From: a virus
Lineage: Duplodnaviria > Heunggongvirae > Uroviricota > Caudoviricetes
Strand: one strand, 5' to 3'
Virus record (IMG/VR): IMGVR_UViG_2778261165_000018
Span: 1-11,868 of that record
DNA: 11,868 bases
The notes under the pieces were generated by a model. The model searched no databases, was not told the origin of the DNA, and was given only the letters and a program-made list of their open reading frames with translations. The translations under genes and the position numbers were made by a program. Shown here one piece after another: positions 2,596-9,714 of this stretch (its first letter is position 1; each line of letters begins with the position of its first letter).

Positions 2596-3405
2596 TTATT
2601 CTTCTGAATTATCGATTACACTGTATTCCCCGGTTAATACAGAGGAGTCTGCCGGATCGATTGTCAGTGGTTCCTTTTCATCCATTGATACTGCACGCTG
2701 GATTTCAATTGAGACTGGCAGGTATTTAAACAGGCGACGAATAGCCGTTTTTTTTGCCATTTCTTCCCAGTGAGTTACCCATGGCCCGTTATTACCAGCC
2801 TTACTCTGGCTGCGCACCAGTTCAATCTGTTTGCGCGTCATAACTTCAAACTGAGTCCCTCCGTCTTTCAGTCTTGCGACAGCATAGACGTGGGTCACTG
2901 GTGCATCTTCGTTTTCTCCCGGGCGGTGTATTAACTTTTCATCAAGGCCAAATTCAAAACTAAACTCGTCACCTTCACGGACAACACGGGCTGACAGGCT
3001 GGCGATTTGACCAGAACGGCGAGCCAGATCAATCATGCCGCGATAACCAATGATTAGCTGAACGTTCTTTTTACCGCTCTTTTCGTTTTTATTACCAAAA
3101 GGCAGTAAATATGCGTGGCCGAGGGCGCTACCTGGCTCAAGGCCGAGCTGTGAACACTGAACGATCGCACTGACAAAACTCATGGTGTCACAGTTTCCTA
3201 GCGCCGGAACCTTACGAATTTCTGTGGTGGCGATACGTATCATTCGTTCAGCCGTCATATGGCGTGGGAGAGCTGCTGCCAGTTGCTCTTTCATTGATGG
3301 CTGATTAATAAAGCTGATCACGTCGTTATTTTTTACTGCTGCTGGTGCACGGTTTCCCTGGGTTTTTTGCAGATCGGCTTTTGCGATAGGTGGTTGCTTA
3401 GTCAT
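2596..3405 (-). CDS. recT: RecT single-strand annealing recombinase, 269 aa
   Basis: [27 protein letters not shown]... matches recalled Rac RecT over its whole length. RBS GGAG 7 nt upstream. Start overlaps the recE stop (3398-3405), indicating translational coupling. Confidence 0.9.
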
Positions 3406-6073
3406 TTGCATACTCCTTAGCCCAGCGGGGCAGTGATAACGTTTTAATAGCTGGCCATTCATCGGTATTCAGGCAGTCAGCCAGGGTCCTCAGATTGCGG
3501 TGATATTCCTGCTGGCCTGCCAGTTTTGCTTCTTCGCCCATCATGAAAATCTCAACCGGGTAACGTCCGCATTCAACAGTTGTGCTGGCAACCAGAAAAA
3601 CGAAAGTTGGCAGCACGCCAAACTGTGCTTCATAACCGTCACTGTAGAATGCATCCTGAACGTGATAGCGGTAGTCGTAATAAGCCGTTTTGAATCGTTG
3701 AATATCCGCTGTGGTTTTCACGTCCATGATCCAGTGAAATTCAGGAATAATTTTGTCCGGACGGCACCGACACAAAATTCCTGTTTCAGGATCTTCCCAG
3801 TAAATTGATGATTCAGCGTGTCCGGCGCTTTCAACAAGCCATTGACCCAGCGGCAAAGCCATAACGCTCTGATACATGAGTTCAATTTTCCGGCCTTCTT
3901 CGGCAGTGATAACCGTTTTTCCTGTGCTTGCGCATTCCATCAGAAACGCTTTCTCCTCTTCTTTTCCGGCGGTTGTACGGCGGTTAAATTCAGGTGCCAC
4001 GATAAAGCGGTTACTGAATTCTTCCGGTTCAAGTACACGGCAGTGGAAAGCGGTTCCTAAATCGAGCGTTTTTGTCTTTGTGGTGTCCACTGGGGCATTT
4101 TTACGCCACAAATACAGAGCCGGAGTATCAGCAATGTCGTCGAGCTGAGACTTACTGACACCGGGACCCGCGTGGTAATTCTCATTCGAAATTCCGTAAT
4201 AAATACCAGGCTCTATGTCTCCTGCGATTACGGGATCTGCGACTTCGCCAGTTTCATCACTGCAATCGCGATGCGGATCGCTGCCAGCATTCTCATTGTG
4301 CGGATGTTCAGGGCCTTCCATTTCCTCCGGATCTTTTTCCTGAGATTCATCCAGATTTTCTTCATTAAAGGTTTCCTGATACGTGGTGTCGCCCATCACC
4401 GCGCCACAATCAGGGCAGTTGCCGCCACCGCTCTGACCGCAGGCGGCACAGACTTTTTCCGGTTCCTGTTGCGCTACTGGTTCAGATTGTTTCGTTTCTG
4501 GCTCGTTTTTCTGTGCATTTGGGCTGTTTTGTTCCGCTTTCTGGTTGTTTTGTTCCGATTCGGGCTGGTTCTGGTTCACAGAATCTCGGGTTTCAATTCC
4601 CTTAACCCATTTCGGATCATTCGGGTCGCTAATCCCTTCAACAAATTCTCCGCGAGAGGCAGCCAGCAATTTGTCGGCATCGACAGGATTTTTGGGCGGA
4701 ATGGTTTTCCGGGCTTCATGGAGTTCTGCCCGCAGTTTCTGATATTTCGCATCAACAGAATTTACCTGTGACTGAGCATCCAGCGGCTGCGTGTCCTGAT
4801 GATGTTCAGTTGCATCCGGTTCCACTGTTTCAGCCGTTGCCTGTTTATCTGCCATTGCGCAAGATGGTTGCGGTTTTTCTTCACCATCGTGTTTTCCTTC
4901 TTCTGTTACACGCTGCGGCATCGGGGCAGAGGAACGACCGCAGGCAATATCCACGATTTCCGGATCAGGGTTGGCATGATCGGTTTCAATCAGCACCTTG
5001 TTCAGATATTCAGTGACATGCGCAGGGATAACCTCGATCCCAATTGGTGCTTCTTTTACGGACGCAACCACGATGGCGCGGGAATAATCCAGCCCGCCAG
5101 GCATGGTGATGAATTTGTCGCGGAAAACAGAAAAGGGCGGTTTATTTTCAGCGATAATTTCCTCGACACGTTTAGCGTGTGCCGGATGAAGGTTATAAAT
5201 GTCCACGTCCATTGAACGAGCCAGTACGCCAGTGGCTACGTCGCGCGCCAGTGACGTCAGATCGTGAACGAAACCTTCGCCGCGATCGGTGAGGTTCCCG
5301 CCGCCAGCATTAGCGCCGGAAGCCGTGCGCGTGATGCGTGAAACACGATTTCCTTTCATCCACTCTTTTGTCAGCAGACCGCGATCGGTGTAGTCTGCGT
5401 CCAGGTATGCTTCGAAAAAAGCAGTCATCAGCCCCAGGCTTGAATTGCCTGGATTAGGGAACACTCTGTCAGTATCACGCACCAGTTTGTGGAGATCGCG
5501 AATTTCCAGCGGGTCGAGCAGGCTGGTTTTGTGGGAAACAGCCAGGGCAGTAACAGCTGGTAGTTCTTCAGCCCGTGCAATGTGTAATGCCTGGAGTTCG
5601 TCGCGTGAAACGTGCGTTACCGGTTTTTCGCTGCCGTGTTGAGCAAGCCAGCGAATGGGCAGCTCCTGACCGGAAATCGGGAGTAGCATATTCTCCTCAA
5701 TCTCCGTCATGTCTTCGCCATTAACATTGGTATTGTCAGTGCTGGCTGGCTTGTCCTGCGCAGAGGATGAGGGCGCGATAAATACCATTGTGATGCCATC
5801 TTCCCCGCCTTTTTCGTAACGGTTGCAGAATTCCGTATCAAATACGCCTTCTGGTGGAAGGTCATCAACAACGGGCAAATTGACGCAAACAGGTTTTTTA
5901 AAGTCATCTTCATCGTAGCCAGCATCGTCAATCGCAACAGCACCACGGGAGATGGCAATGGATAATTTTTTCGCTTCAGCCCAGTAGAAACCGCCTTTAA
6001 TACCGAGACGTTTTCTTACTTTGTCATTTTTTGCTTCGTAATACAGTGGGTAAACTTGTTTATCGGTGCTCAT
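3398..6073 (-). CDS. recE: RecE exonuclease VIII, 891 aa
   Basis: C-terminal two-thirds (from [17 protein letters not shown] to the end ...[11 protein letters not shown]) matches recalled K-12 RecE, including the nuclease domain. The N-terminal roughly 110 residues differ from what I recall. ATG at 6073 with RBS GAGGT. Confidence 0.9.
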
Positions 6074-6522: not shown

Positions 6523-6693
6523 TTAAAGTTCGTGTGCCATCTGGTCTTTTTCGGCACAGATTTCACTACAATATTTTTTCATTTCCGTCGTTGGTATAAC
6601 TCCACGCATGAAATGAAGTGGTCTTGTAATGATTTTGCTTTCTTCAATTTCTTTATTGCAAAGGTGATAAGCACATTTTATTTTCTTAGTCAT
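6523..6693 (-). CDS. ydaE: YdaE-like small zinc-binding protein, 56 aa (absent from the ORF track)
   Basis: My translation of the minus strand: [56 protein letters not shown], with paired cysteines C-x4-C and C-x3-C. Its ATG overlaps the kilR stop (TAATG at 6691-6695). Confidence 0.7.
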   Translation of the reverse strand: MTKKIKCAYHLCNKEIEESKIITRPLHFMRGVIPTTEMKKYCSEICAEKDQMAHEL

Positions 6694-6914
6694 TACCATG
6701 ACTCCGCCTTTACAGGTAAACCATCACGACCGAGGAAGACTCTAATCATGCAGTCAGAAATGCATGTTTTTGTAGTCAGGCTACGAATATAAAGTTTTCG
6801 CTTTTTAATATTGTTTGCCGAGGCGATATATGTCCGACCTTCATGAAGAACATAATCGCCAGGGGTCACACACTGACGTGGTATTTCATCAGTTCCGAAG
6901 TGATGAGCAATCAT
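6693..6914 (-). CDS. kilR: KilR cell-division inhibitor, 73 aa
   Basis: [35 protein letters not shown]... matches recalled K-12 KilR. RBS GGAGAT 6 nt upstream of the ATG at 6914. Confidence 0.8.
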
Positions 6915-7419
6915 AATTATCTCCATTTTTACAAATGAATTTTGTCGATGCGGTGCCTGGTGCCTCCAGGTGACGTTAACCAGTTAACAATTAACGCCGG
7001 ATCGTGATATCACCTAAACAGATACGGGTTGTTTTTAACTGTTCCGCGTGCGCTGAGCCGCATTCACCGCATCACAAAATTCACTTTAAAAAGGACGGAC
7101 ATCAGCCAGCAATGAAACTGATGCCGCCAAAAGGTAATCAACATGGGTTGTTGCAGCGGGGTTGTCACTCAAGCGTATGGTCAACCTGACAACCCGGTGC
7201 TCCACAGGGGGAGGGAGAATAGCACCCCTGCCATACTTACCGCCGCGCCATTTCGCGGATTGCCACAACCGGAAGCGCACGGTCGAAGAAATTTAAAGAC
7301 AAGCCTTCTAAGGGAAAAACACCTCCTCCGTGCGCTTTCGTGTTGTGCGCCTGTCTTTTTACCACTTCAGGCTCGGTGGTATACTGGAGTTCTCACACAA
7401 CCAGTAATAAGGTATTCCG

Positions 7420-7614
7420 ATGGATAATAAAGACAAAGCCTGGCTACTTGCTTTAGCTTTCAGCATCAGATCGCAGCGAGAAACAACTCATCAAGAATTT
7501 TTCTCGGAAATCGAGAATGCTGAGAATGAGTTTTTGTCACTACTCAATGAACGTGATGCTAAAAAAAGCGCCGATTCACTTAAGGCTTGGGCGAAACTAG
7601 GCTCTTCAAAATAA
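7420..7614 (+). CDS. Hypothetical 64 aa protein in the position K-12 Rac gives to sieB
   Basis: ATG at 7420 with RBS AAGGT 6 nt upstream. Candidate promoter TTTTAC (7357-7362), 17 nt spacer, TATACT (7380-7385). No hydrophobic segment, so unlike a SieB membrane protein. Confidence 0.4.
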   Translation: MDNKDKAWLLALAFSIRSQRETTHQEFFSEIENAENEFLSLLNERDAKKSADSLKAWAKLGSSK

Positions 7615-7798
7615 TTGCTTCTGTAGCGGCATGAACAACTGTTTTTGCCGCCTCTTCAACTTCCTTGTCTGGACGACCAGCCTTTACTTTTTCTGCAATG
7701 ACCTCCAGCACAGTTGGAAGAACCTTGCTAATAAGCATGGCTGCCACATCTTTGCTGCACAATTGACCGTTAATAACAACCAGATCTTCACCAACCAT
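7580..7798 (-). CDS. Hypothetical 72 aa protein (possibly the intact form of the short ydaF/ydaG genes of K-12 Rac)
   Basis: ATG at 7798 with strong RBS AAGGGG 7 nt upstream. The track ORF extends to a TTG at 7855 without an RBS. Its 3' end overlaps the convergent 64 aa gene by 35 nt. Confidence 0.5.
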   Translation of the reverse strand: MVGEDLVVINGQLCSKDVAAMLISKVLPTVLEVIAEKVKAGRPDKEVEEAAKTVVHAATEAIILKSLVSPKP

Positions 7799-7977
7799 CT
7801 TTTTTCCCCTTAACGCCGGGTGGCGGAACGTTTTATCTACTGCGCTTTGTATCAATCAACAACTGCCGTCATGTTCGTATGCCTCAGGCTGGCTACTTAG
7901 CCCTGTTCAGTGGCTGGATAACTCGAGGTATTGTCCTGCCGTTCTCTGGTGGGGCGTTGTTTGGATATGACAAATGC

Positions 7978-7990
7978 TCACATATCGTGA
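7978..7990 (-). promoter_or_regulatory. Isolated operator-like site TCACGATATGTGA (read on the minus strand)
   Basis: Exact match to the TCACG-N3-TGTGA motif found three times in the racR/ydaS intergenic region. A perfect TTGACA lies on the minus strand at 8003-7998. Confidence 0.4.
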
Positions 7991-8043
7991 GTGATTTGTC
8001 AACTCAATATGTGAGCAATGTTGTTTTTGGATTTTTGATGGAC

Positions 8044-8076
8044 AAAAAAAGCCCTCGCTAATAGCGAGAGCTTTTT
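8044..8076. terminator. Bidirectional intrinsic terminator downstream of the repressor gene
   Basis: A7 (8044-8050), hairpin GCCCTCGCT/AGCGAGAGC (8051-8071), then TTTTT (8072-8076). Has terminator form in both orientations. Confidence 0.6.
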
Positions 8077-8102
8077 GATTGGAATCGAGGGAGATTAAAG
8101 GT

Positions 8103-8492
8103 TTAGGAGGATTTTTTCTGTTGCCTGCTTCTTAGATATTTTTCCACATACTCATCAAGCTCTTGAAGACGGATTTCGAACAGATCAATCATGCGTGCTT
8201 GTTCTGATCCCGGGAGCTGATTAAACAGCTCTAGCATTTTTTTCTGGTTATCATTTAACCATGAGTACGTGTTTTCCTGTTCACCGAACATTAATTCTGC
8301 GGGGGAAATGCCTAGTACTTGGCCGAGGATGATCGCATCCTCAGCCCCCACACTCCTGGTGCCAGCTTCGTAGTTAGCAATACGAGAAGAACCTGACCAA
8401 CCACATAGTTTTGCCAGGTTTCCCATACTTAATCCTCGATTTAGGCGAGTGGCTTTTAGGCGCTCGCCTATTTGTTCTGCAATCGTTTTCAT
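8103..8492 (-). CDS. racR: Prophage repressor, XRE/Cro-C1 family HTH (RacR-like), 129 aa from the ATG
   Basis: HTH signature LSMGNLAKLCGWSGSSRIANYEAG. Divergent from the cro-like ydaS across an operator-bearing intergenic region. Start taken at MKTIAEQ (8492); the track ORF extends upstream from a TTG. Confidence 0.75.
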   Translation of the reverse strand: MKTIAEQIGERLKATRLNRGLSMGNLAKLCGWSGSSRIANYEAGTRSVGAEDAIILGQVLGISPAELMFGEQENTYSWLNDNQKKMLELFNQLPGSEQARMIDLFEIRLQELDEYVEKYLRSRQQKKSS

Positions 8493-8505
8493 AGTTCCGA
8501 TTTTA

Positions 8506-8567
8506 TCACGATGTGTGAAATTGGCGGTACTCACGTATCTGTAGTTGATCTCACTCACGAAATGTGA
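8506..8567. promoter_or_regulatory. Three-site operator array (OR-like) between racR and ydaS
   Basis: TCACGATGTGTGA (8506-8518), TCACGTATCTGTA (8531-8543), TCACGAAATGTGA (8555-8567). Near-palindromic 13-mers spaced 25 and 24 bp centre to centre. Confidence 0.55.
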
Positions 8568-8572
8568 ATAAT
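8545..8572 (+). promoter_or_regulatory. Candidate rightward promoter for ydaS (pR-like)
   Basis: -35 TTGATC (8545-8550), 16 nt spacer, -10 AATAAT (8567-8572). Operator site 3 overlaps the spacer and -10. Confidence 0.35.
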
Positions 8573-8586
8573 AGAAACAGGAGGTA

Positions 8587-8832
8587 ATGATGAACAAAAT
8601 TTCAACATATCGAAAACAGCTTGGGCTGTCTCAAAGACAACTTGCTGTTCAGTTAGGGTGGATACAAAGCCGACTGGCAAATTACGAAGCAAATTTTCGT
8701 ACCCCTGGGCTAGAGGAGTGCAGAAAAATTGTTTCTACCCTTAATCGGCTTGGTGCTCATTGTGGACTTGACGATGTATTCCCCCCAGACGGTAAGCATA
8801 GCGAAAACAGCATAGGAGCGGTTGATTCATGA
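8587..8832 (+). CDS. ydaS: Cro-like HTH regulator YdaS
   Basis: HTH region LSQRQLAVQLGWIQSRLANYE. RBS GAGG fits the second ATG at 8590 better. Stop overlaps the ydaT start (ATGA at 8829-8832). Confidence 0.8.
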   Translation: MMNKISTYRKQLGLSQRQLAVQLGWIQSRLANYEANFRTPGLEECRKIVSTLNRLGAHCGLDDVFPPDGKHSENSIGAVDS

Positions 8833-9251
8833 AAATCAGGCATGAGCACATCGAATCAGTGTTGTTAGCCCTGGCAGCCGAAAAAGGGCAGGCGTGGGTC
8901 GCTAACGCAATTACTGAAGAATATCTGCGCCAGGGGGGCGGCGAATTGCCCCTTGTACCAGGCAAGGACTGGAACAATCAGCAGAATATCTATCACCGTT
9001 GGTTGAAAGGTGAAACGAAAGCGCAAAGGGAAAAAATTCAGAAACTCATCCCTGCGGTTCTGGCAATTCTTCCGCGCGAGCTGCGTCACCGACTCTGCAT
9101 CTTCGATACCCTGGAACGCCGTGCATTACTGGCGGCGCAGGAAGCGTTGAGTACGGCAATTGATGCGCATGATGATGCAGTACAGGCCGTTTACCGGAAA
9201 GCACATTTCAGCGGTGGTGGGTCGCCCGGCGATTCTGTCGTAGTGCATTGA
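8829..9251 (+). CDS. ydaT: YdaT-like protein (reported toxic partner of YdaS in Rac), 140 aa
   Basis: MKIRHEHIESVLLALAAEKGQAWVANAITEEY... matches recalled K-12 YdaT in length and sequence. Translationally coupled to ydaS. Confidence 0.8.
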   Translation: MKIRHEHIESVLLALAAEKGQAWVANAITEEYLRQGGGELPLVPGKDWNNQQNIYHRWLKGETKAQREKIQKLIPAVLAILPRELRHRLCIFDTLERRALLAAQEALSTAIDAHDDAVQAVYRKAHFSGGGSPGDSVVVH

Positions 9252-9296
9252 TTGAAATTAATCGTGCCGGATTGTTTTGTTCGGTATCAGTTAAAT

Positions 9297-9714
9297 GTAA
9301 CGCTGCGAGCGTTACAAGGTGAAAACAAATGGCTTCAAACTGGATAAAGCTCGAGGTTATTACGCCGGATAAGCCGGAAATATTCAGGCTTGCTGAGATT
9401 CTGAATATTGATCCAGATGCCGCATTAGGGAAGGTTATTCGCTTCTGGGCATGGGCGGATCAACAAATGATAGACGGTAATGCAGATTGTAACGCTCGCG
9501 GCGTTACAAAAAGTGCAATAGATCGCATCACTTTTATGGCTGGTTTTGCTGATGCGTTAATTCAGGTTGGATGGCTGGTCGAAAATGACGTTGGGCTTTC
9601 TCTACCTAACTTTGAACGTCATAACGGAAAAAGCTCTAAAAAACGGGCGGTTACAAACGAGCGAGTTACAAAAATACGCGAACTGAAACGAAAAGGTAAC
9701 GCTGCCAGCGTTAC
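9297..9714. repeat. Iteron-like 19-bp palindromes GTAACGCT-N3-AGCGTTAC (three good copies and one degenerate)
   Basis: GTAACGCTGCGAGCGTTAC (9297-9315, just upstream of the ydaU-like start), GTAACGCTCGCGGCGTTAC (9489-9507), degenerate GTTACAAACGAGCGAGTTACA (9650-9670), GTAACGCTGCCAGCGTTAC (9696-9714). An acidic linker with (GAGGAA)3 and an AT-rich patch follow at 9736-9775. Confidence 0.5.

Follow-up and report, generated by a model that had tools for sequence, protein, structure and literature searches.

Is the palindromic repeat that lies past the far end of the repressor gene of this prophage a left operator, and does it belong to a leftward promoter? The initial annotation had proposed both, in the form of a second leftward promoter under repressor control with the possibility of OL-OR looping, and had left the promoter assignment open. 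The stretch of DNA analysed, here called the window, has a length of 11,868 nucleotides, and judged by its sequence it comes from a Rac-like lambdoid prophage of E. coli, of which it covers the left arm and the immunity region. In a sequence search, positions 7400-9300 were 100 % identical to the chromosome of a chicken E. coli strain, the annotation of which lists across this interval recT, recE, ydaE, kil, two hypothetical genes, an HTH repressor, an HTH regulator and ydaT. The window is organised as follows:

1-342, DUF2511 gene of the host flank
462-606, SraC/RyeA-SdsR small-RNA pair of the host flank
734-1810, integrase gene, intact
1776-2063, excisionase gene
between the excisionase gene and recT in the gene order, RalA/ralR
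2596-3405, recT
3398-6073, recE
6693-6914, kil
7094-7128, minus strand, intrinsic terminator separating the PL-proximal genes from kil, recE, recT, xis and int (-18.3 kcal/mol, z = -3.3, followed by CCUUUUU)
7420-7614, plus strand, open reading frame of 64 aa
7580-7798, minus strand, first gene of the predicted PL operon (72 aa, phrog_23495, function unassigned)
7806-7829, minus strand, 24-nt stretch GUUCCGCCACCCGGCGUUAAGGGG just 5' of the start codon of the first PL gene
8046-8076, both strands, bidirectional intrinsic terminator between the repressor gene and PL
8103-8492, minus strand (read 8492 to 8103), repressor gene (129 aa, HTH_3/HTH_31)
8587-8832, plus strand, Cro-like HTH gene (product of 81 aa)
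8829-9251, ydaT, a cII-type regulator gene, followed by replication genes

The 24-nt stretch GUUCCGCCACCCGGCGUUAAGGGG contains a CGCC/GGCG hairpin and a ribosome-binding site, and it was identical among loci that differ in their first gene. Similarity to other prophages with the same repressor starts at approximately position 7803 (7805 in pPE4), thus OL, the repressor gene, OR, the cro-like gene and ydaT travel as one immunity module. This immunity type is rare: at least 80 % of 7800-8590 was present in 10 of 5426 complete E. coli genomes, and literature queries, made without the operator or repressor sequence, returned no published work on it. A plus-strand open reading frame spanning the repeat (7879-8061) was rejected as a gene candidate, its ATG being ACG in Rac.

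The repeat is present at 7978-7990 as an exact 13-mer in minus-strand reading and begins 113 bp past the repressor stop codon, in agreement with the approximately 115 bp first given. The bidirectional terminator reported between gene and repeat was also recovered, as a hairpin of -19.4 kcal/mol followed by U7 on the minus strand and of -16.1 kcal/mol followed by U5 on the plus strand. The candidate operators on both sides of the repressor gene are:

7978-7990, TCACGATATGTGA on the minus strand and TCACATATCGTGA on the plus strand, predicted strong left operator OL1
8002-8014, TCACATATTGAGT on the minus strand, putative weak left operator OL2 with one intact and one degenerate half-site
8506-8518, TCACGATGTGTGA, OR3, adjoining the repressor start codon
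8531-8543, TCACGTATCTGTA, OR2, a weak site just upstream of the PR -35 hexamer
8555-8567, TCACGAAATGTGA, OR1, within the PR spacer

Extended by one base on each side, the OL1 13-mer becomes a 15-bp site, CTCACGATATGTGAG (7977-7991), with perfect inverted arms of 5 bp. It differs from OR1 and from OR3 in one of 13 positions each. Exact copies of TCAC-N5-GTGA (TCACNNNNNGTGA) were observed three times in the window (7978, 8506 and 8555) for an expectation of 0.14, a number reached by none of 200 shuffles, and all three are confined to the two intergenic regions that flank the repressor gene. The degenerate pattern with one mismatch allowed was not in excess in the window (7 matches versus 3.9 expected), thus the operator signal depends on the exact copies and on their locations.

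All four operator copies of the initial annotation are there, while a fifth, degenerate one at 8002-8014 had been missed. By sequence alone OL2 is not significant; it has 3 mismatches, and about 2.5 such matches are expected per window. Its assignment is supported by position, as judged from Rac, KY178, the HK022-type, the DicA-type and other loci, all of which carry a putative operator copy at this place. The centres of OL1 and OL2 are 24 bp apart, the same spacing as between OR1 and OR2 in the window; OR2 and OR3 are spaced by 25 bp. A third left site (OL3) was not visible upstream of OL2. Two diverged copies of this immunity region, in phage vB_Apl-pPE4 and in the viral contig L034, carry an unchanged OL1. 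Eight of the 10 substitutions in their two regulatory regions fell outside all operators and promoter hexamers, the remaining two changed the outermost position of OL2 and a single base of OR2.

Could the palindrome have arisen by chance, or could it terminate transcripts of the repressor gene as a small hairpin? On the minus strand one scan gave CTCACGATATGTGAG plus CATTTGTCAT a terminator-like score, and folding of the 31 nt around it yields -8.7 kcal/mol. However, no U-run follows it, a much stronger terminator (8046-8076, -19.4 kcal/mol, U7) is located upstream, and the failure of all 200 shuffles to yield three exact copies speaks against chance. Other immunity types moreover place different palindromes at this position, each of them matching its own OR. 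We consider this explanation extremely improbable and treat the repeat as a predicted operator.

For the promoter, the following elements were assigned:

7997-8002, minus strand (read 8002 to 7997), TTGACA, predicted -35 hexamer of PL
7974-7979, minus strand (read 7979 to 7974), GAGCAT, predicted -10 hexamer of PL at a 17-bp spacer, with TG at 7982-7981 (extended -10, TGTGAGCAT)
7966-7968, minus strand, predicted PL transcription start at A7968 or A7966, derived from promoter geometry as 6-8 nt after the -10 hexamer
8545-8550 and 8567-8572, TTGATC and AATAAT of PR, with a 16-bp spacer

In minus-strand reading the region is GCTCACATATTGAG-TTGACA-AATCAC-TCACGATATGTGA-GCAT. The perfect TTGACA, which had been noticed before with coordinates shifted by one position (8003-7998 instead of 8002-7997), is one of only two in the window. 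Its first T is overlapped by OL2. OL1 occupies the spacer and reaches two bases into the -10 hexamer; the spacer ends in TGT and thereby provides an extended -10 of the form TGnGAGCAT. PR is built alike, in the order TCACGTATCTGTA (OR2), G, TTGATC, TCAC, TCACGAAATGTGA (OR1), with the -10 hexamer AATAAT beginning at the final base of OR1. At both promoters a weak operator abuts the -35 hexamer, the spacer harbours a strong operator that extends into the beginning of the -10 hexamer, and the operator centres are separated by 24 bp.

The weak part is the -10 hexamer. GAGCAT matches the consensus at 3 of 6 positions, the lowest value among the immunity types compared, and a scan with the promoter consensus did not call PL on account of it. 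The earlier statement that a convincing -10 is lacking at the right spacing is nevertheless not sustained: GAGCAT stands at 17 bp behind the -35 hexamer, is preceded by TG, and occupies the same alignment column as the -10 hexamers of the relatives, though it is weak. This weakness looks like the price for a GTGAG half-site that covers the first bases of the hexamer; a perfect -35 hexamer together with the TG motif may make up for it.

Support for the operator as well as for the promoter came from comparison with other immunity types. Unannotated DNA with about 75 % identity to positions 7803-7973 occurs in approximately 3750 of 5426 complete E. coli genomes, and this similarity to thousands of other prophages sets in at about 7973, close to the predicted transcription start; in K-12 the match is located between racR and ydaG of the Rac prophage. 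The window, Rac of K-12 and strain KY178 were put into a three-way alignment that runs from the leader back to the repressor stop codon. TTGACA was invariant in it. The -10 column reads GAGCAT in the window, TATAGT in Rac and TTTAAT in KY178; CATTAT also occurs in this column among the relatives. At the two operator positions Rac has the palindromes TAGGCATAGCCTA and TAGGCATTACCTA with the motif TAGGC-N3-GCCTA, and KY178 has ACACATTTCGTGT and AACACATTGTGTT with the motif ACAC-N5-GTGT. Each of these motifs recurs in the intergenic region between repressor and cro gene of its own prophage, and the repressor-cro region of Rac likewise has the order operator, TTGACA, operator.

Viral contigs were scanned with 24 nt of the leader, which revealed 120 loci of many immunity types, among them the HK022-type and DicA of Qin (ortholog locus L016). 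For 8 immunity types the operator of the PL spacer was sought within 2.5 kb on either side. In all 8 the only other matches were situated upstream at a distance of 650-1430 bp, on the other side of the repressor gene, and numbered 2-7 per type for an expectation of 0.04-0.45. A common layout thus holds for at least 8 types: a weak operator, a TTGACA-like -35 hexamer (present in most immunity types), a strong operator in the spacer, a -10 hexamer and a conserved leader. The operator sequence changes together with the OR copies of each locus, while the position of the promoter is constant. Computation shows the repeated sequence, where it lies, how the promoter is spaced, and that operators covary with immunity type. 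This comparative layout supports the original proposal of a second, repressor-controlled leftward promoter, and we regard it as very probable from sequence that 7978-7990 is OL1, the main left operator of the DicA-like repressor, inside the spacer of PL.

The operator could also be real and promoter-free, an auxiliary site such as an anchor for OL-OR looping by which PR or the repressor promoter would be repressed more tightly, with the leftward start elsewhere. The poor -10 hexamer GAGCAT, uncalled by the consensus scan, speaks for this reading. Against it stand the perfect TTGACA at the right spacing of 17 bp and the TG in front of the -10 hexamer, as well as the good promoters that occupy the same columns in every related immunity type. 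The leader conserved in the 3750 E. coli genomes starts a few bases downstream, and an alternative is lacking: between 8100 and 2637 the scan found no other sigma-70-like promoter on the minus strand, so that kil, recE and recT would be left without a minus-strand candidate in front of them. An operator devoid of a promoter is therefore rated as highly unlikely, and PL is retained as the predicted source of the leftward transcript.

The predicted PL transcript carries at its 5' end an element that is conserved beyond E. coli:

7858-7961, minus strand, conserved structured leader RNA of 104 nt

In the window a closing helix (AACAAC plus GC, pairing with GC-A-GUUGUU) surrounds an inner hairpin with the conserved loop CAAUACCUCGAGUUA, and the hairpin is followed by about 40 nearly invariant bases (AAGUAGCCAGCCUGAGGC...GAACAUGAC). 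The closing helix varies by genus, with AACAAC/GUUGUU in the window, CCCGCC/GGCGGG in Rac, UCACU/AGUGA in Arsenophonus and CACCCC/GGGGUG in Winslowiella. The inner stems vary as well (GGCAGGA/UCCAGCC, CACGAAG/CUUCGUG, GCUGAG/CUCAGC, CCGGGA/UCCCGG), while the 15-nt loop CAAUACYNCGAGUUA is conserved. Homologues were sought with a 17-base leader pattern in one genome per species. This yielded 88 loci, approximately half of them chance matches in unrelated phyla, roughly as many as expected for a pattern of this size. True homologues were present in Arsenophonus, Serratia, Symbiopectobacterium, Pectobacterium, Pantoea, Winslowiella, Superficieibacter, Escherichia and Shigella. By inspection, a -10-like hexamer precedes the element by about 10 nt in every genus, which gives independent support for a transcription start there.

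Folded as a single sequence, the leader was not more stable than its shuffles (z = +1.1 for the window, -1.3 for Rac). MAFFT and RNAalifold on 55 leaders retained just three invariant pairs, since the alignment placed the variable stems wrongly; the structure was therefore drawn by hand and examined with a covariance model and with a test based on an anchor. The covariance model, built from six sequences of the window type, detected 70 copies, all of them in Enterobacterales loci and none in the chance-match loci. In the model-fitted alignment 86 % of the cells pair versus 60 % after shuffling (0 of 500 shuffles reached the observed value) and 28-43 % with slid 3' partners, and 15 of 17 leader pairs have changed on both sides. 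Since an alignment fitted by the model leans toward the structure, the inner stem was retested with a structure-blind alignment anchored on the loop. There, 28 distinct stems had 76 % of their positions paired, for a mean of 60 % and a maximum of 67 % among shuffled and 27-43 % among slid stems; the two pairs next to the loop were always paired, alternating between A-U and G-C. For the folding strand, the count of G-U versus A-C pairs was 28 versus 42.

Neither Rfam nor the put family accounted for the element. Rfam gave no match at the operator site or the leader, neither at gathering thresholds for the whole window nor at E <= 5 over 7750-8100, where matches were limited to weak terminator look-alikes at 8013-8100. 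Queries of the literature with the leader sequence returned only unrelated papers. The position resembles that of putL in HK022 and HK639, in which a structured RNA likewise follows PL directly and terminators precede the kil and recombination genes; in the window, the terminator at 7094-7128 lies between the first open reading frames and kil. Membership in the put family was rejected all the same: the leader covariance model R1 had no match at E <= 10 in HK022 or HK639, the put consensus (GAACGGCGCG...AAACCAUGCGUCGG) is absent, and put sequences cannot be aligned to 7858-7961. A put RNA consists of two stem-loops (PMC9378689). Unlike these two stem-loops of about 70 nt with conserved bulges, the leader consists of a hairpin and a long invariant strand enclosed by one closing helix. 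A small open reading frame starting at the conserved AUG in GAACAUGACGGC was rejected too: the triplet is AUA, AUC or GAG in several homologues, and the peptides differ in length and sequence.

A role of the leader as a substitute for N/nut antitermination was considered. The window has no N-like gene after the leader, the 72-aa product of the first PL gene is without a detectable arginine-rich N-type motif, and inspection of 7799-7968 revealed neither a boxA of the CGCUCUUA type nor a boxB, hence no nutL. In Arsenophonus a classical boxA, a boxB hairpin (UCGCUGAAAAAGCGA) and an N-like, arginine-rich open reading frame lie downstream of the same element. The leader thus cannot simply replace N/nut, and the substitute hypothesis is weakened. 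Possible roles are the passage of RNA polymerase through the terminator at 7094-7128 without N, the stability or processing of the early-left mRNA, and the binding of a host factor. Tentatively, and with somewhat less than even confidence, we propose that PL launches an undescribed, widely conserved structured RNA, which would stand at the very 5' end of the early-left mRNA made by lambdoid prophages of E. coli, Serratia, Pectobacterium, Pantoea, Symbiopectobacterium, Arsenophonus and others and would act on it in cis.

Which protein would bind the left operators? The repressor of 129 aa has an N-terminal HTH of the XRE type and a DicA-like helical C-terminal part. A domain search found no S24 peptidase domain in it; induction by RecA-stimulated autocleavage is thus not possible. 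The NCBIfam model of DicA (NF007257) scored 52 bits against a cut-off of 101 and covered model positions 4-133 of 135, and the identity to the DicA ortholog was 29 % over the full length. By sequence the repressor is therefore classed as DicA-like, but not as DicA. It shares 62 % identity with the repressor of strain KY178; no similarity to RacR was detectable by sequence comparison.

Cro-type proteins use the operators of the repressor in lambda, CP-933P and Qin (PMC8630535, PMC10448788), and sequence cannot tell which HTH protein reads TCAC-N5-GTGA. The site might therefore be bound mainly by the Cro-like protein or by YdaT instead of the 129-aa repressor. This reading and binding by the repressor are not exclusive, shared operators being the rule, and the operator motif covaries with the whole repressor/cro module. 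The YdaT-type motif TTGATT-N6-AATCAA had 12 matches in the window for 9.9 expected and none in 7960-8020. On balance another protein as the main ligand is unlikely, and the repressor remains the favoured one.

We infer repressor binding and cooperativity at this locus in the following manner, while an OL-OR loop would be hypothetical, the computed evidence speaking neither for nor against it. Bound to OL1, a repressor dimer would overlie both the -10 and the -35 hexamer and exclude RNA polymerase, and a second dimer on OL2, 24 bp away, would probably assist cooperatively. In the lysogen the left operon would then be silenced, comprising the leader RNA, the 72-aa open reading frame, kil, ydaE, recE, recT, ralR, xis and int. 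Binding to these operators is also probable for the Cro-like protein.

In its architecture the operator appears as a further member of the well-known lambda-style OL/PL systems, as far as sequence can tell. The consensus half-site of the lambda operators is TATCAC, and the outer bases TCAC...GTGA of the window have the same geometry. In lambda, as here, the annotated centres of OL1 and OL2 and those of OR1 and OR2 are 24 bp apart, and PL shows the same overlaps, one operator lying in the spacer over the -10 hexamer and a second over the upstream edge of TTGACA. Both OL/PL regions are located beyond the repressor gene as seen from OR and transcribe away from it. The differences are two left sites instead of three, a PL without N gene or nutL downstream, and a shorter distance of 577 bp between the centres of OL1 (7984) and OR1 (8561), which is approximately 2.4 kb between the annotated centres in lambda. 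The leader covariance model found nothing in lambda.

The DicA/dicBp system of Qin in E. coli K-12 shares with the window a short DicA-type repressor, operator repeats at the leftward-equivalent promoter and a kil-type division inhibitor downstream. Ahead of its first gene, the DicA-bearing locus L016 carries the 3' leader element of the window, with an operator of the different TGTTAGCCATGAC type; the Qin-type leader lacks the structured element of 104 nt. HK022 has a PL/OL of the same immunity type as several loci that bear the leader element of the window, the PL of this type being nearly the same. CP-933P of E. coli O157:H7 has the switch architecture of the window, with a cI-like repressor, the Cro-like YdaS and the cII-like YdaT; its operator consensus consists of GTTTAGTAA repeats, unlike the window, and its repressor is co-transcribed with a toxin-antitoxin pair. 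Its repressor PaaR2, which forms octamers, and YdaS repress PL933P, a second promoter beyond the repressor operon that carries OL1-3 (PMC8630535). Deletion of dicA raised dicBp 22-fold, DicA being the repressor of dicBp (PMC10448788), and depletion of RacR increased ydaG, ydaF, kilR, ydaE and racC 40-70-fold (PMC11014345). These experiments on the positional equivalents dicBp, PL933P and Rac agree with a PL under repressor control. The PL promoters of lambda and HK022 are further equivalents with experimental work behind them.

For the operator alone little is at stake, as it maps one more lambdoid immunity region. A switch of two plus three sites with a short, non-cleavable DicA-type repressor could be a compact model for OL-OR communication over approximately 580 bp. 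The comparison has wider use: a leader conserved behind PL in thousands of E. coli prophages makes it possible to locate PL and the operators automatically in each immunity type and to match them with the OR sites. The leader RNA deserves follow-up more than the operator: if functional, it would be a common, unannotated RNA element in cryptic prophages, at the switch between lysogeny and the expression of kil, recET and the excision genes.

At its extreme 5' end, the predicted transcript of the leftward early promoter PL carries a structured leader RNA of 104 nt. It consists of a hairpin, whose loop CAAUACYNCGAGUUA is conserved, inside a closing helix; about 40 invariant bases follow the hairpin. 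The covariation support for this structure is strong, and lambdoid prophages throughout the Enterobacterales carry the element, for which Rfam holds no family. An identity with the put RNA, the antiterminator RNA of HK022 and HK639, was rejected. Examples from the compared loci (L-numbers) are listed below the window element.

7858-7961, minus strand, structured leader RNA, 104 nt
L002:2549-2647, homologue
L159:6292-6396, homologue
L133:2907-3011, homologue
L128:1100-1203, homologue
L141:1396-1502 and 3379-3483, two homologues

The two copies in L141, a locus of Arsenophonus triatominarum, belong to two tandem immunity regions on the same strand (1300-1720 and 3180-3700). Each is ordered as Cro-like gene, repressor, promoter, leader element, boxA (CGCTCTTTAACA), boxB-type hairpin and N-like ORF rich in arginine. 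The sequence 3' of boxB, UUUUGGGGUGUGUGA, is similar to the lambda N leader.

In the window, the first PL gene (the minus-strand ORF below) is directly preceded by a 24-nt stretch, and a second small ORF and a terminator lie on this arm:

7806-7829, minus strand, 24-nt stretch GUUCCGCCACCCGGCGUUAAGGGG
7580-7798, minus strand, small ORF, phrog_23495
7420-7614, plus strand, small ORF, phrog_22868
7094-7128, minus strand, stable intrinsic terminator (CCUUUUU 3' of the hairpin; -18.3 kcal/mol, z = -3.3)

Identical copies of the 24-nt stretch occur in 120 viral contigs, among which the following genes vary (products beginning MVHYE, MDTI, MVGEDL or MTFTQ), and it is kept even in some leaders that lack the 104-nt element. 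It may act as a signal for translation initiation or for processing, or mark a recombination junction at which modules meet. The two small ORFs are convergent with an overlap of 35 bp, the plus-strand ORF having a promoter-like site at 7358-7385 (TTTACC, 16 bp, TATACT, with TG), whereas in Rac of K-12 their place is occupied by sieB, ydaF and ydaG. The terminator separates the PL-proximal ORFs from kil, recE and recT, and no N-like antiterminator gene that would explain its passage was visible in the window.

Within 1-734, the prophage end adjoins host genes, listed here with the integrase of the prophage:

1-342, DUF2511 gene (host)
462-606, SraC/RyeA-SdsR small-RNA locus (host)
734-1810, integrase, intact

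An IS3 element interrupts the integrase in NZ_CP148483.1, the complete genome closest to the window, thus the window comes from another strain or insertion site. The immunity region of the window, from E. coli, is also present with 96.5 % identity in phage vB_Apl-pPE4 (PP818812.1, L215), which has recE, kil and ydaT genes as well. This phage was deposited as infecting Actinobacillus pleuropneumoniae, a host that looks doubtful.

Operator half-sites in reversed, head-to-head order (GTGATATCAC) are included in GGATCGTGATATCACCTAA at 6995-7012, within a 500-bp non-coding gap from kil to a 64-aa ORF; they may be a chance occurrence. The core of the operators, TCAC-N5-GTGA (7978-7990, 8506-8518 and 8555-8567), shares outer bases and spacing with the half-site TATCAC of the lambda consensus operator. 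The repressor of strain KY178, 62 % identical to that of the window, pairs with ACAC-N5-GTGT, but the sequence at the OR3-equivalent site of this strain (L003:3229-3243) is ATCACGAATCGTGAT. The operators of the window and of KY178 look like a closely related specificity pair differing at the outermost base.
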